DNA of 64,000 nt. Source: Escherichia coli. GTDB lineage: Bacteria > Pseudomonadota > Gammaproteobacteria > Enterobacterales > Enterobacteriaceae. Of this stretch, positions 11,005 through 16,216 are shown piece after piece. Location of the stretch: NCBI RefSeq assembly GCF_003790525.1, contig NZ_CP033635.1. One strand, written 5' to 3'. Each line of letters opens with the position of its first letter. Within the stretch, counting starts at the first letter, position 1. The notes under the pieces were generated by a model, which worked only from the letters and a program-made list of their open reading frames with translations, searched no databases and was not told the origin of the DNA. The position numbers and the translations under genes were made by a program.

Positions 11005-13506
11005 TTGGAAATCATAATGGCGCATAACTTTTCTTCAGTACTCGAAAATCATAACGAAGATATCAACATCTGCATCTCTAAATTTGATATTAACATTGAT
11101 AATTATTCCGTATTTACTCCTAAGGAGTTGAATATAAAAGGTGATGATAGTAATAAGGTTTATATAAAAGGTAATAAGCTTCCTGTAGGTATTGAAATAA
11201 TATTTACAGATAAAGCAAAAAAATGTAACGTTTTCATCGATGAAAACATTAAAGCTAAAGCTAGTAAAATATCATTAAAAAATGAAAATAACTTTCTTTA
11301 TCTTGGCCGAAATTGCACACTGAATAATATTGGAGCAGTTATTTTAGGTCGTAATGATTTTATAATTGTTGGTGAGAGTGTTTCGGTAACAGCTCATAAT
11401 ACTTGGAGCACCGGTTTTAATTCAGGAAAAGATAATAATGGACTTATTATAGGAGATCATTGTCTTATCGCATCTGAAATTATAATCCGCCCAGGTGACG
11501 GACATCTTGTAATTGATACCAATACTGGTCAACAATTAAATGTTTCACATAAACCTATAGTAATCGAGCCTTATTGCTGGATTGCTCAAAGAGCTGCAAT
11601 TTTAAAAAATGTACGTATAGGTGCATGTTCAATAATTTCCTTGGGAGCTGTAGTTACAAAATCATGTAACCGGTTTAGCCTTCTTTCTGGAGTACCTGCG
11701 AAAGCTGTGCCTCTAGGAGGCAAAATGTGGTTAAGAGGTCCTGGTAAAGAAGCAAAAGCTATCCAACAATATTATAAGGATAAGTTTAGTTGCCCGGCAT
11801 CTAATACAGAATTAGTTATCCAGAAACAAGAACAAAGTAATCTGAAAGGGACGATATCAGATTCATTAATGAACTGGGAGTTTATACGCACTACACAGAT
11901 TATCAATCGAATTGTCTCTGTTGATAACCCTGATTTTGGTCTGGCTGTAAAATATTATTTGGATCTAGGATATTTAGATGCAGCGTTCTCGTTGTTAGAT
12001 GATTTTGAGAGAAAACACGGATGTTGTATAAAAAATTATCCTGGGAATCATATTGAAAACTGGAGCTCAGTAATATATTGCTCACGTCTTAAAGACAGAA
12101 TTAGAATAAATTCTAAATTAAACAGCACAACACCTTTTTTTACTCAAATGCTCGTGTGTTGTGTGAGGAATGAGTTGGATGAGGTATTTGTATCATTAAA
12201 AAAACTCTGGAATCATATTATAAGCAAAGATATCGATGCCGAATCGAATATGATTCTTAGCTATGCCGTTCTGAAACTTATTGACCACTGTAAACTTGAT
12301 GATGAACTTGGTATAAAAATATCTTTACATTTACACTCGGCAAAAAACATCAATATTTATAGACGTCGACATTTGCTTAAAGAACTAATTGTTTATTTTT
12401 CATCCATTAATAATACAAGCTTTTTTTCATTACCTAAAGCATTTACTAACCATTTGCATAAAATATCAAATACACTTCAATCTTATAGTAACCGAGAAGT
12501 TGGTGCAAAATATCTTAATAAAATATTTATAGAGAATATTAGAACCAACAACAACTTCTCAATAAAAAGATATGCAAGATGTCCAAAGCGTACAGCAATT
12601 TGTGTCTCTGGTATGATGAAAATTGATGATTCAGCCATGCGCTCATTATATCAAAAAATCGCAGAACCATTAAATGCTGATATATTTTTGCATACATGGG
12701 ATAAGATCCAAGTTTGGAGCGGAGAGGCTCGTAAGTCTGGATTTTGGCAACGGCAATTCAAACTTCCTGATAATAAAATACCTCATCCATTAAGAGACAT
12801 TGATAAATTTAAAGAGAAATTCCCTCGTACAGGTAATTTGCTTCTAAGTACAATTACTGATGATATTAATGTTCACTTTTCCGCTACACACCCTTTAATA
12901 AAAATGAGTGTCATTGAAAATGAAGATGTCGCTCTTCATAATTGGTTAAATAATAAATCATTTATGAGCAGGGGGAACTATAATCAGTTTAAAATGTATT
13001 ATGGTATTAAACGAGTATTTGAACTATTAAAAGAATATGAAGAAAATAATGGCTTTAAATATGATGTCATTATAAGAACTCGCCCAGATATGTTTATTAC
13101 GAAAGAGTTCGATATAGAACGACTTAACCAAGCTAAAGAAAATAGCATTGTCGTTAATTGTGGAAGTGTGGGACCCAATGATGGTATTTTTTATGCGCTC
13201 AGGCAGGATTATGAAAAGATAGTATCAATATGGGATGAGATGCTACAGTCAGAAAGTTTGAGTCCTTTCTTAAATTTTGAAAAGTATGATTCGCATGTTC
13301 TTTTGTATGCATGGCTATGCCATAAAAATATAGAGATGATAAATATAGATGATATATTTTATGACTTGGCAATCATATCAACTTCGGCTAAAATCCCTGG
13401 GCTCAGACAAGCTCTTGAAGAGGATCTTATTAATTTTGATAAAAACTTAAAGGAGCAGAAGCAATATACTGATTTATTCAATTTTCTATTGAGTCGCTCT
13501 AAGTGA
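11005..13506 (+). CDS. fusion protein: N-terminal hexapeptide-repeat (left-handed beta-helix) acyltransferase domain plus C-terminal uncharacterised transferase-like domain
   Basis: 833 aa; hexapeptide-repeat stretch IIGDHCLIASEIIIRPGDGHLVID...IGACSIISLGAVV; C-terminal part with DVIIRTRPDM motif; AT-rich. Confidence 0.6.
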   Translation: MEIIMAHNFSSVLENHNEDINICISKFDINIDNYSVFTPKELNIKGDDSNKVYIKGNKLPVGIEIIFTDKAKKCNVFIDENIKAKASKISLKNENNFLYLGRNCTLNNIGAVILGRNDFIIVGESVSVTAHNTWSTGFNSGKDNNGLIIGDHCLIASEIIIRPGDGHLVIDTNTGQQLNVSHKPIVIEPYCWIAQRAAILKNVRIGACSIISLGAVVTKSCNRFSLLSGVPAKAVPLGGKMWLRGPGKEAKAIQQYYKDKFSCPASNTELVIQKQEQSNLKGTISDSLMNWEFIRTTQIINRIVSVDNPDFGLAVKYYLDLGYLDAAFSLLDDFERKHGCCIKNYPGNHIENWSSVIYCSRLKDRIRINSKLNSTTPFFTQMLVCCVRNELDEVFVSLKKLWNHIISKDIDAESNMILSYAVLKLIDHCKLDDELGIKISLHLHSAKNINIYRRRHLLKELIVYFSSINNTSFFSLPKAFTNHLHKISNTLQSYSNREVGAKYLNKIFIENIRTNNNFSIKRYARCPKRTAICVSGMMKIDDSAMRSLYQKIAEPLNADIFLHTWDKIQVWSGEARKSGFWQRQFKLPDNKIPHPLRDIDKFKEKFPRTGNLLLSTITDDINVHFSATHPLIKMSVIENEDVALHNWLNNKSFMSRGNYNQFKMYYGIKRVFELLKEYEENNGFKYDVIIRTRPDMFITKEFDIERLNQAKENSIVVNCGSVGPNDGIFYALRQDYEKIVSIWDEMLQSESLSPFLNFEKYDSHVLLYAWLCHKNIEMINIDDIFYDLAIISTSAKIPGLRQALEEDLINFDKNLKEQKQYTDLFNFLLSRSK

Positions 13507-13543
13507 ACCATTATTAATAAATACTGTTTAATAAGGTGATAGT

Positions 13544-14290: not shown

Positions 14291-14642
14291 TATCGATAAT
14301 ACTCTTTCATTTACTACCAATGGAGATTATAAGAATGCAGAGCCAAATATACCTTTGATAGAAAAACTGAGAGAATATAAAGGAAAAGGTTACGAGATTA
14401 TACTTTCCACGAGTAGAAATATGCGAACCTATAATAGTAATATAGGAAAGATTACAGCAGTAACTTTACCTATAATTGTAGAGTGGCTAGAAAAAAATAA
14501 TGTACCTTATGATGAAATTTATGTCGGTAAACCATGGTGCGGTCATGAGGGATTCTATGTGGATGATAAGGCCATTCGTCCCAATGAATTTGTTAACTTA
14601 AGTCATAATGAGATAAAAAAATTGACAGGTATTAAATCATGA
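14271..14642 (+). CDS. HAD-superfamily phosphatase-like protein
   Basis: 123 aa; HAD motif I FDIDNTL at N-terminus; overlaps flanking genes (operon). Confidence 0.6.
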   Translation: MKRIIFDIDNTLSFTTNGDYKNAEPNIPLIEKLREYKGKGYEIILSTSRNMRTYNSNIGKITAVTLPIIVEWLEKNNVPYDEIYVGKPWCGHEGFYVDDKAIRPNEFVNLSHNEIKKLTGIKS

Positions 14643-16216
14643 TTTTGATTACTTCGGCTGCCTATATTTCTAATGAATTGAGAATTGAGTTTGGAGTTAT
14701 CCCTCCATGTTTATTACCCATCGGTAATCGTACTTTATTAGAGTATCAAGCAGAATCAATTCGTAAAATAAGCAACGAGAAAATTTTTTTGACTTTGCCA
14801 GAGGATTACTGCCTATCAAATTTTGAAGAACGATTACTAGACTCGCTAAATATACGAGCCATCTACTTATCACCAAATTTAAGCTTAGGTGAGTCTATTT
14901 ATCAAGCACTTGATAGTATAGGTGATTATACTTTTTCATCCGATGGTCTCAAGCTGTTACATGGTGATACTCTGATTAATGATTTAACTAATCAGAATGA
15001 TATTATTGCTGTGGCACCATCTTCAGATGATTATTTTTGGGAAAAAGAAGAACATACATATGAGAACCTTGCCTGGTGCGGTTATTTTACATTTTCTATG
15101 CCTAATATATTTAAGGGATTTTTAGAAGCATCAAGATTCAATTTTGTACAAGCAGTTCGTTCTTATGATGAAGTAATCCACCTCAGTCGTATGAAACCAA
15201 AAAGCTGGGATGATCTAGGGCATTTAAATACTTATTTTATTTCTCGATCTAACATTACTACTCAGAGAGCATTTAATGAAATGCGTATTCAACATGGGAT
15301 GGTATGGAAATCAAGCAAAAACAACAAAAAAATTCTTGCTGAAACGAATTGGTATAAAAAAATCCCAGCCTTACTAAAATCTTTTACACCTCAGTTGATC
15401 GAAGACGGTATTTACAACAAAACTGGAAATTATTTCTACACATTAGAATATTTACCATATATCCCATTAAATGAAATATTTGTTCACGGCAAAAATCCAG
15501 ATTTTTTTTGGAGGAAAATTTTCAATATTATCAAAGAATACTTATTCAAAGCTAATAGTGCACTGACAAATATTAGTCAAACTAATATTGGTGAAAAAAT
15601 AGCCATTGATTCTGAAGCGTTATATAGGACTAAAACATTTGTTAGACTCACAGAGTATGCCGTTGAGAATAATATATCAATCGATAAGCCTGTTTTTTAC
15701 GATAACAGAAGATTACCTTCATTACACGATATAGCTAGTGATTGTATAGACCGAACTACTCAGCTACCAATTGTACCTTCAATTCTTCATGGGGATCTTT
15801 GCTTTAGTAATATTCTTTTCAACTCTCGTCTTAACAGCATTAAAGTGTTGGATCCTCGTGGTATAAGCCATAATGGTGAAGAGACCATTCTTGGTGACCA
15901 AAAATATGATCTGGCAAAACTCTGCCATTCAGTAATAGGACTTTATGATTATGTAATTTCCGGAAGATATCATTTAGATGGGGATCTATTTAATAATGCT
16001 GTTATAAGGTTTGATATAGATACACGAATTAAGAGTATTCAGCAAGAATTTTATGAATATAAATTCTTGTCTAATATTAGTGTTGGAGAAATAATGCCTC
16101 TTACTACTTTGCTATTTTTGTCTATGCTGCCCCTTCATAGCGATCGTCCGGATCGTCAAAAAGCTATGCTGTTTAATGCACTGCGGATATATTCTACATA
16201 TGTTTACGATGTTTAA
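14639..16216 (+). CDS. bifunctional nucleotidyltransferase-like / protein-kinase-fold (APH or choline-kinase-like) enzyme
   Basis: 525 aa; C-terminal Brenner-type motif LHGDLCFSNILFN and downstream D-x-K-style motif; N-terminal part resembles nucleotidyltransferase fold. Confidence 0.55.
   Translation: MILITSAAYISNELRIEFGVIPPCLLPIGNRTLLEYQAESIRKISNEKIFLTLPEDYCLSNFEERLLDSLNIRAIYLSPNLSLGESIYQALDSIGDYTFSSDGLKLLHGDTLINDLTNQNDIIAVAPSSDDYFWEKEEHTYENLAWCGYFTFSMPNIFKGFLEASRFNFVQAVRSYDEVIHLSRMKPKSWDDLGHLNTYFISRSNITTQRAFNEMRIQHGMVWKSSKNNKKILAETNWYKKIPALLKSFTPQLIEDGIYNKTGNYFYTLEYLPYIPLNEIFVHGKNPDFFWRKIFNIIKEYLFKANSALTNISQTNIGEKIAIDSEALYRTKTFVRLTEYAVENNISIDKPVFYDNRRLPSLHDIASDCIDRTTQLPIVPSILHGDLCFSNILFNSRLNSIKVLDPRGISHNGEETILGDQKYDLAKLCHSVIGLYDYVISGRYHLDGDLFNNAVIRFDIDTRIKSIQQEFYEYKFLSNISVGEIMPLTTLLFLSMLPLHSDRPDRQKAMLFNALRIYSTYVYDV

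Follow-up and report, generated by a model that had tools for sequence, protein, structure and literature searches.

A four-gene module in the K52 capsule locus of Escherichia coli that probably builds and decorates a fructofuranose side branch

What do the four co-oriented open reading frames (ORFs) that follow a kpsT-type capsule transport gene in an E. coli genome make? The question is raised by positions 11005-16216 of a 64,000-nucleotide stretch of contig NZ_CP033635.1, the whole of which we refer to as the window. A first-pass annotation of these ORFs proposed a kinase, nucleotidyltransferase and phosphatase pathway for an activated precursor, combined with O-acylation, and held that the substrate could not be read from sequence. 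Our analysis supports this general logic, and comparison with the capsules K4, K116 and Campylobacter jejuni HS:1 and with Vibrio cholerae takes the substrate further, pointing to fructofuranose over a phospho-head-group. We conclude that the four ORFs are probably a K52-specific module that builds and decorates the beta-D-fructofuranose side branch of a phosphodiester-linked galactose backbone. The features of the module are listed below, with protein lengths in amino acids (aa).

11005-16216, plus strand: the four-ORF module
11005-13506, plus strand: ORF1 (K52_10), 833 aa from a TTG start; three-part protein of O-acyltransferase, helical domain and candidate GT-A-fold transferase
11212-11739, plus strand: left-handed beta-helix (hexapeptide) O-acyltransferase domain of ORF1, residues about 70-245
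11857-12534, plus strand: all-alpha (TPR-like) domain of ORF1, residues about 285-510, from the AlphaFold model
12577-13440, plus strand: predicted GT-A-fold domain of ORF1, KfoD/BcbD/HS1.08 family, candidate fructofuranosyltransferase, residues about 525-812
13544-14290, plus strand: ORF2 (K52_9), 248 aa; sugar-phosphate nucleotidyltransferase of the BcbE/KfoH/4EVW family
14271-14642, plus strand: ORF3 (K52_8), 123 aa; capless HAD phosphatase of the BcbF/EcbF/K4 orf3/1XPJ family
14639-16216, plus strand: ORF4 (K52_7), 525 aa; stop codon at 16214-16216
14639-15253, plus strand: N-terminal domain of ORF4, nucleotidyltransferase fold, residues 1-205
15281-16216, plus strand: C-terminal domain of ORF4, APH-fold kinase, residues about 215-525

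All four ORFs are genuine and intact. The first-pass annotation had raised the prospect that they might be fragments of disrupted genes; none is, because the full-length 5.2-kb stretch occurs at 99% identity or higher in 39 of 5,426 complete E. coli genomes and each ORF aligns end to end with its homologues. The probability of a stop-free frame arising by chance at 31.8% G+C is 3e-31, 8e-10, 3e-5 and 5e-20 for ORF1 to ORF4, respectively. In RefSeq and in the published K52 cluster, ORF1 begins instead at the ATG at 11017, which gives 829 aa. The co-orientation of the genes in AT-rich DNA (31.8% G+C) downstream of a kpsT-type gene (10111-10797) is as first described; the genes were also said to overlap, which is correct for ORF2/ORF3 (20 nt) and ORF3/ORF4 (4 nt) but not for ORF1 and ORF2, which are parted by a 37-nt gap. 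It is scarcely credible that the genes are non-functional relics in a mosaic locus: the locus is indeed a recombinant mosaic, and an IS3 pseudogene lies directly downstream, but the ORFs are intact in 39 genomes, their catalytic motifs are conserved, and ORFs of this length at 32% G+C would not be expected by chance.

The window holds an E. coli group 2 kps capsule locus of the K52 type, with the module in its AT-rich region 2. We identify the type as K52 because the ORFs of 525, 123, 248, 829, 1248 and 330 aa have the sizes of K52_7, K52_8, K52_9, K52_10, K52_12 and K52_13 as tabulated in the supplement to the kTYPr catalogue (PMC13171606), and because a structure search of AFDB50 with the ORF1 C-terminal model returned as its top match UniProt B7NCT8 of E. 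coli O17:K52:H18 UMN026, which is 99% identical. The locus is thus already catalogued and its sequence is not itself new; new here are the reading of the ORFs as one four-part module, the assignment of that module to the fructose branch, the 248-aa protein as a nucleotidyltransferase, and the GT-A domain as the likely transferase. The serotypes K2, K18/K22/K100 and K51 were considered and rejected: genes for CDP-glycerol or CDP-ribitol synthesis are absent from the window, as is a Stealth protein, and the ORF set is that of K52. The K52 polymer reportedly consists of a galactose-1-phosphate backbone with fructofuranose (Fruf) on O-2 of galactose (Gal), plus O-acetyl and O-propionyl substituents. 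Two publications, Hofmann et al. (1985) and Oscarson and Sehgelmeble (2005), describe in their titles a fructose-containing, phosphodiester-linked polymer with beta-D-fructofuranosyl moieties.

The case for fructose begins with K4. The last three genes of the module, here called the trio, have homologues in K4 loci (KfoH 46%, orf3 60% and KfoE 35-45% identity, the KfoE match being full-length), and with kfoD all four parts are homologous. The two gene sets differ in order, which is D-F-G-E in K4 (kfoD, orf3 or kfoI, kfoE, kfoH) and D-E-F-G in K52; in the D part, which in K52 is fused behind the acyltransferase; and in the acceptor, which is O-3 of glucuronic acid (GlcA) in K4 and Gal in K52. 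Both polymers carry a beta-Fruf branch, which we take to be the only constituent that they have in common. K4 is a chondroitin with beta-fructose on GlcA O-3, and the passages of two papers that cite Liu et al. 2014 (PMC7925653, PMC8858990) report that deletion of kfoE gives non-fructosylated chondroitin. In the K4-type locus of E. coli WP7-S18-ESBL-09 (L003, 12374-14719), kfoE is split by an IS1 insertion, and this strain should therefore naturally make non-fructosylated chondroitin.

The same four families, in the same order as in K52, make up bcbD-bcbE-bcbF-bcbG of Pasteurella multocida type B, whose proteins have 364, 236, 124 and 521 aa (EcbF/EcbG-type genes are those that give TIGR01689 its name). 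The E, F and G proteins are 47-64% identical to those of K52, while BcbD differs from K52_10 in having no acyltransferase and in lacking most of the helical domain. Comparison by tblastn, blastp and hidden Markov models (HMMs) with K4, P. multocida, Pseudomonas and a plasmid-borne E. coli kps locus (L010) found all four families present and adjacent in K52; the module belongs to the BcbD-G/KfoD-orf3-KfoE-KfoH gene set, which is widespread and not a new kind of system. In kfoD, bcbD, the Pseudomonas kps-like loci and L010, the gene directly upstream of the trio encodes the same core as the C-terminal part of ORF1. That part, initially set apart as an uncharacterised transferase-like domain, thus belongs functionally with the three downstream genes. 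In a K112-like locus, the 415-aa gene at this position had no Pfam, NCBIfam or HMM match.

A second polymer class with the trio is the V. cholerae lipopolysaccharide core. In the wav core-oligosaccharide cluster, the trio lies between waaA and the WavE gene, and its proteins are 58% (HAD, 126 aa), 35% (527 aa) and 49% (247 aa) identical to those of K52; the 247-aa protein is 98% identical to PDB 4EVW. This cluster differs from K52 in its fourth gene, which is WavE (PF07507) instead of a D-like gene, and in its product, which is lipopolysaccharide and not capsule. Published V. cholerae core structures are said to contain one fructofuranose.

The D-like part has a relative in HS1.08 of C. jejuni, a genetically defined fructose transferase. 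Residues 404-812 of K52_10 align with residues 410-824 of an 843-aa C. jejuni protein (26% identity over 425 residues, E 4.8e-33; profile E 1e-103), which sits at the HS1.08 position of an HS1-type locus (L013, 10001-12532). Like K52_10, HS1.08 combines a helical and a GT-A domain, and it adds beta-Fruf to Gal of a phosphodiester-linked capsule, as K52_10 probably does; it differs in that a further GT-A-like copy stands at its N-terminus, in its (VKVDN)n repeat and in having no acyltransferase. The two GT-A-like copies fit the reported pair of branch positions, C2 and C3 of Gal. In the HS:1 capsule, the beta-fructofuranose branches on Gal are lost when HS1.08 is deleted (PMC7901785). Judging by this homology, the likely transferase in the module is the KfoD/HS1.08-type GT-A domain rather than KfoE. 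Two further observations concern the C. jejuni locus itself: the (VKVDN)n repeat probably lies behind the length variants of 828-848 aa in the HS1.08 cluster, and L013 6764-10001, where the TagF-like polymerase HS1.09 would be expected, contains only short ORFs (206 and 152 aa), so that the HS1.09 gene may be disrupted in that strain.

K116 provides the complementary comparison. For the acetyltransferase, polymerase and 330-aa genes, it has counterparts 48-68% identical to those of K52, with the acetyltransferase standing alone at 262 aa; no trio ORF is listed between kpsS and the acetyltransferase gene, and the ORF numbering leaves no space for one. Since K116 keeps these three genes without the GT-A domain and the trio, K52 looks, from gene content, like a K116-type core to which the four-part module has been added, its first part fused to the acetyltransferase. 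That the trio feeds the TagF-like polymerase was rejected, as K116 has the polymerase without the trio.

How constant is the module elsewhere? We counted genes within 7 kb of the homologue of the 525-aa protein in the best 80 of 541 species loci. A nucleotidyltransferase neighbour was present in 79/80 loci and a HAD phosphatase in 70/80. A D-like gene was found in 25/80 and a WavE gene in 35/80, the two together in a single locus (1/80), and both were absent from 21/80. The trio is thus near-obligate and its fourth partner variable, the pattern usual for conserved donor-synthesis genes combined with an acceptor-specific transferase.

The domain inventory first proposed (acyltransferase fusion, nucleotidyltransferase, HAD phosphatase and nucleotidyltransferase-kinase fusion) is borne out by matches to 3jqy, 4evw and TIGR01689 and by the fold model. 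RefSeq names the 248-aa protein 'glycosyltransferase family 2 protein' (CDD GT2_BcE_like). However, the GxxxRF, PK, GQA, NID, EK and GxYxF motifs of sugar-1-phosphate nucleotidyltransferases of the RmlA/GlmU/4EVW type are all present and invariant in an alignment of nine homologues, and a search of the PDB with the family profile found one solved structure, 4evw (E 1e-99), the 'nucleoside-diphosphate-sugar pyrophosphorylase' of V. cholerae RC9. Because of these motifs and this match, the protein is, on sequence evidence, a nucleotidyltransferase and not a GT2 enzyme, and the database name appears to be wrong. It falls under the cut-off of every named NCBIfam equivalog.

The 123-aa protein is a member of TIGR01689, the 'EcbF-BcbF capsule biosynthesis phosphatase' family (200.1 bits, cut-off 162), and the HAD motifs DxDxT, K87 and DD98-99 are invariant in its family alignment. 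Its PDB matches were 1xpj (6e-59), presumably of V. cholerae origin, and 9iqw (6e-14); GmhB chains (E 0.008-0.011) and the T4 polynucleotide kinase phosphatase were marginal, and profile and PDB comparison did not place the protein in the GmhB family. Against the HAD-IIIA domain model it scored 29.7 bits, below the cut-off of 44.6.

ORF4 was modelled as two domains with a predicted local distance difference test (pLDDT) score of 91.7. The C-terminal domain matches APH(3') and APH(2'') enzymes in Foldseek, and the APH/choline-kinase-like motifs K224, E235, H384-G-D386...N391 and D405 are invariant in 26 homologues; Pfam APH is on record for 525-aa homologues, while single-sequence Pfam searches gave marginal, weak and unspecific matches. 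The Foldseek matches of the N-terminal domain are ST0452, VTC1, MurU, UGPase, LicC (1jyl), RmlA, 4evw and GMPPA/B. In the alignment, this domain keeps HGDT and WxDLGH, but SAAY(V/I)...IPPC replaces GxGxR...PK and the Arg is not conserved, so that it is not a canonical nucleotidyltransferase: the N-terminal G-x-G-x-R loop and the catalytic Lys are missing. A sequence search of the PDB with the 525-aa protein gave no useful match, and a search with the A2 alignment profile returned designed TPR proteins plus weak nucleotidyltransferase matches. The fusion had been thought unusual. On the contrary, the 525-aa protein has at least 1,731 protein-database matches, the alignment covering most of the query among the 120 matches listed, and of 100,044 species-representative genomes, 541 encode a relative, spanning a range from Gammaproteobacteria to Bacteroidetes, with some Gram-positives included.

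The N-terminal domain could carry out a second nucleotidyl step, act as a GMPPA-like substrate-holding or regulatory partner of the 248-aa enzyme, or be the transferase itself. The last option leads to an alternative for the whole module, in which fructose is still the sugar but the 525-aa KfoE-type protein is the fructosyltransferase by way of a GT-A-like N-terminal domain, the 248-aa protein is the sole nucleotidyltransferase, and the KfoD/BcbD-like domain of K52_10 has another job (acceptor or polymer binding, coupling to polymerase or export, or a different modification). The K4 literature gives KfoE this role; the gene is named a fructosyltransferase, and in the accounts cited above its deletion abolishes fructosylation, but this phenotype is unable to separate donor synthesis from transfer, and the KfoE domains do not support the role. 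The missing G-x-G-x-R/Lys signature and an ILITSAAY strand that recalls GT2 enzymes would fit a transferase, as would the 21/80 loci with neither a D-like nor a WavE neighbour, and two nucleotidyltransferase-fold domains in one pathway would be accounted for. On the other hand, the nearest folds of the N-terminal domain are nucleotidyltransferases and not glycosyltransferases, and it is as conserved as the kinase (mean column identity 0.57 versus 0.58) despite acceptors as different as Gal in K52, GlcA in K4 and core sugars in V. cholerae, which fits a small-molecule substrate better. The D-like domain, moreover, is homologous to HS1.08, which is genetically sufficient for Fruf branches in a locus without KfoE. 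Altogether, we regard KfoE as the transferase as unlikely, and favor the GT-A domain of ORF1.

A variant of ORF4 was seen in locus L008 (6707-14270), where a kinase protein with a different N-terminal part (22% identity) stands beside a HAD and a nucleotidyltransferase gene. Its neighbors are a GT2 gene, a GtrA-family gene and a gene for a 926-aa protein that RefSeq calls hypothetical. This arrangement may be a lipid-linked, periplasmic route to the same sugar.

The N-terminal part of K52_10 matches the polysialic acid O-acetyltransferases NeuO (3jqy, 5.5e-19) and OatWY (2wlc, 8.7e-7) in the PDB. It shares with them the left-handed beta-helix and aligned DGH and W motifs, the DGH and (Y/C)W motifs lining up with those of NeuO 3jqy, and is placed with the NeuO/MAT-type enzymes; we take these motifs to hold the catalytic residues. 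It differs from NeuO and OatWY in sequence (about 30% identity over 170 residues), in the polymer, and in its fusion to a 570-residue transferase module. The WcaF/NeuD-type families of NCBIfam gave weak, sub-cut-off matches, and the stand-alone 262-aa acetyltransferase K116_7 is 68% identical to this domain. The C-terminal 550 residues comprise a helical and a predicted GT-A-fold domain and are homologous to KfoD, BcbD and HS1.08; in the AlphaFold model of the 568-aa C-terminal part (pLDDT 92.9), the helices occupy its residues 2-250 and the C-terminal domain has a predicted GT-A fold. The helical domain is also found in L010_562 and HS1.08. As first suggested, the acyltransferase-transferase fusion is rare: a word-indexed search found it in E. 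coli, Aeromonas and Ca. Pantoea formicae only. The GT-A-type core alone forms a large family (7,823 cluster representatives at E <= 0.001); sequence searches found no solved structure for it, a PDB search with the D-domain profile gave no useful match, and its one Pfam match, DUF7796, was weak. NCBIfam had no model for the 525-aa, D-like, WavE-neighbor or HS1.08 proteins. In Aeromonas allosaccharophila, A0AAX3P169 (1,121 aa) has the helical and GT-A module fused to an annotated 'alpha/beta hydrolase' domain, a second, independent joining of this module to an enzyme domain of another class.

Which known pathway does the module resemble? Three analogies had been put forward, and the one that fits best is HddA/GmhB/HddC, which makes GDP-D-glycero-alpha-D-manno-heptose by the same logic: an anomeric kinase, a HAD phosphatase that removes the distal phosphate, and a nucleotidyltransferase. 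The likeness is one of logic and not of family, in that all the K52 proteins stay below the family cut-offs. While HddA belongs to the GHMP kinases, the K52 kinase has an APH/protein-kinase-like fold with HGDxxxxN and D motifs and did not match the GHMP fold, and K52 has an extra nucleotidyltransferase-fold domain. The LicA/LicC and AmgK/MurU pairs, like the 525-aa protein, combine a nucleotidyltransferase fold with an APH-type kinase, and MurU and LicC are near the N-terminal domain in fold; they differ in their substrates, in that the K52 domain has no NTP-binding signature, and in that a separate canonical nucleotidyltransferase and a phosphatase stand alongside in K52. The LicA/LicC and Gct/TarI analogies did not hold at the family level: Pfam gave no Choline_kinase match and the N-terminal domain lacks the NTP-binding signature, and for Gct/TagD and TarI/IspD there was no CTP_transf_like match and IspD scored 19.1 bits (cut-off 253).

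It is therefore very improbable that the trio activates a phospho-head-group or polyol phosphate (choline-P, glycerol-P or ribitol-P) in the LicA/LicC or Gct/TarI manner, for the TagF-like polymerase or as a substituent. The architecture does resemble LicC-LicA fusions, with LicC (1jyl) among the fold matches, and a TagF-like polymerase does lie upstream. Yet no such constituent appears in the titles of the K52 references or in the composition that K52 reportedly has, there is no Choline_kinase or TagD/IspD membership, K116 has the same type of polymerase without the trio, and K4 has the trio without choline, phosphate or polyol. TagF-like domains, moreover, can use hexose-phosphate donors (PMC5974469).

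Returning to fructofuranose, we propose that the trio would make an activated fructofuranosyl donor from a common metabolite; all catalytic motifs expected from the folds of the trio are intact. The kinase would phosphorylate the anomeric O-2 of fructose-6-phosphate, the 248-aa enzyme would join fructofuranose to a nucleotide, and the HAD enzyme would remove the 6-phosphate at one of two points, ahead of nucleotide activation (the order in which GmhB works) or once the sugar has been transferred. The phosphatase domain of Bcs3 from Haemophilus influenzae type b offers an analogy for the latter, since it dephosphorylates after transfer, in that case for ribofuranose. The GT-A domain of ORF1 would then move fructofuranose onto Gal of the poly(galactosyl phosphate) from the TagF-like polymerase, and the fused NeuO-like domain would add O-acetyl or O-propionyl groups from acyl-CoA. 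Any particular order of these steps is put forward only tentatively.

Several points weigh against the fructose-branch assignment or parts of it. We infer both the identity of the donor and the order of the steps, and a simple four-step route needs no second nucleotidyltransferase-fold domain. The K4 literature names KfoE the fructosyltransferase, and the 21/80 loci that have neither a D-like nor a WavE neighbor offer no candidate of either type. Three hhalign runs of WavE against the D-like family (including one of 34 versus 28 sequences) aligned the first beta-alpha-beta motif only, with a probability of up to 11%; no significant similarity was found, and the two are thus equated by context only. 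The C. jejuni HS:1 locus, on inspection, contains no kinase, HAD or nucleotidyltransferase trio; either HS1.08 can draw on a donor from another source, or the trio serves some other purpose. Because the stand-alone K116 acetyltransferase is 68% identical, it could be the backbone, and not fructose, that is acylated in K52. Finally, the trio also occurs in E. coli O-antigen clusters, O78 (L011, 7776-10503) and O20/O137 (L004, 8857-11569), and in the O-antigen locus L009 (9806-12419). To our knowledge, the published O78 repeat unit has no fructose, which either counts against the assignment or reflects a missed acid-labile branch. In the O78 and L009 clusters, a WavE-family gene lies a few genes off from the trio.

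These O-antigen loci, and the many other species with the trio and no reported fructose, bear on a further alternative, in which the activated sugar that the trio makes is not fructose, or varies from locus to locus (another ketose or a furanose, for example), and the K4/K52 fructose link is indirect. The weak, unspecific Pfam matches of the kinase would also allow this. However, three Fruf-associated systems carry the trio, namely K4 (with genetic evidence), K52 and the V. cholerae core; K4 and K52 have no other constituent in common, and their other sugars have known standard precursors. Fructofuranosides are acid-labile and readily lost during O-antigen preparation, so their absence from old O-antigen structures is weak evidence. 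We consider a non-fructose sugar quite improbable.

If fructofuranose is the product in K52, does the same hold for the wider family? It is conceivable, though we stop short of calling it probable, that the trio with a D-like or WavE-type partner is a general bacterial pathway for nucleotide-activated fructofuranose, present in about 0.5% of species; that KfoE is mis-named and KfoD/BcbD/HS1.08-type domains are the true fructofuranosyltransferases; and that O78, O20/O137 and many other glycans carry a missed acid-labile fructose. Our literature search found no mechanistic paper on bacterial nucleotide-activated fructofuranose, fructose 2-phosphate, kfoH/kfoI or V. cholerae core fructose, and none on H. 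influenzae type e genes.

The surrounding capsule locus consists of the following features, in window order.

Window start: gsp secretion genes
4323-5099: kpsM
5199-6191, plus strand: K52_13, 330-aa GT-A-type glycosyltransferase-related protein, common to K7, K106 and K116
6211-9945, plus strand: K52_12, TagF-like capsule polymerase of 1,244 aa, candidate galactose-1-phosphate polymerase (InterPro domains)
10111-10797, plus strand: kpsT-type ABC transporter ATPase, divergent and AT-rich, upstream of the four-ORF module
About 16434-17543, minus strand: frameshifted IS3-family transposase pseudogene (annotation of strain 118UI), flanked by the 525-aa gene and kpsS
Beyond the IS3 pseudogene, minus strand: kpsS-C-U-D-E-F

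Across 5.0-16.5 kb, G+C drops from about 55% to about 30%, and the four-ORF stretch is at 31.8%, against about 50% for kps region 1 and the gsp genes on its flanks. kpsM and kpsT are set apart by two K-specific genes (window 4263-10797), which agrees with the rearrangement published for K52; the kTYPr catalogue counts K52 as one of the clusters in which kpsM and kpsT are rearranged (PMC13171606). KpsM is 99% identical to its counterparts in K4 and K112-like loci, whereas identity is only 74-77% for KpsT, whose gene has about 29% G+C, and this difference points to a recombination junction directly after kpsM and a foreign kpsT. The IS3 pseudogene is a possible trace of how region 2 was acquired. 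The polymerase, for which RefSeq gives the product 'CDP-glycerol glycerophosphotransferase family', has 1,244 aa in the window, against 1,248 aa in both the kTYPr K52 reference and strain 118UI; the offset between window and L001 coordinates moves by 12 nt across this gene, which is consistent, from coordinates alone, with a 12-nt indel.

K52 was estimated to have the greatest potential for invasion among the E. coli capsule types compared in one survey and is common in the multidrug-resistant CC69 lineage (PMC13171598). Gene roles for its antigenic fructose branch would open the way to making defined K52 antigen with enzymes, for use in vaccines or diagnostics, and to a rational reading of K-typing data, for example of K116 as a likely unbranched relative. 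They would also correct two database names, the 248-aa 'glycosyltransferase family 2 protein' and the KfoE 'fructosyltransferase'. If the trio makes fructofuranose, the O78, O20/O137 and L009 O antigens should bear an acid-labile fructose branch. More broadly, the four soluble proteins are an experimental route to the activation and transfer of a 2-ketofuranose in bacteria, and the answer would extend to K4 chondroitin production, to the HS:1 capsule of C. jejuni and to the core of V. cholerae lipopolysaccharide.

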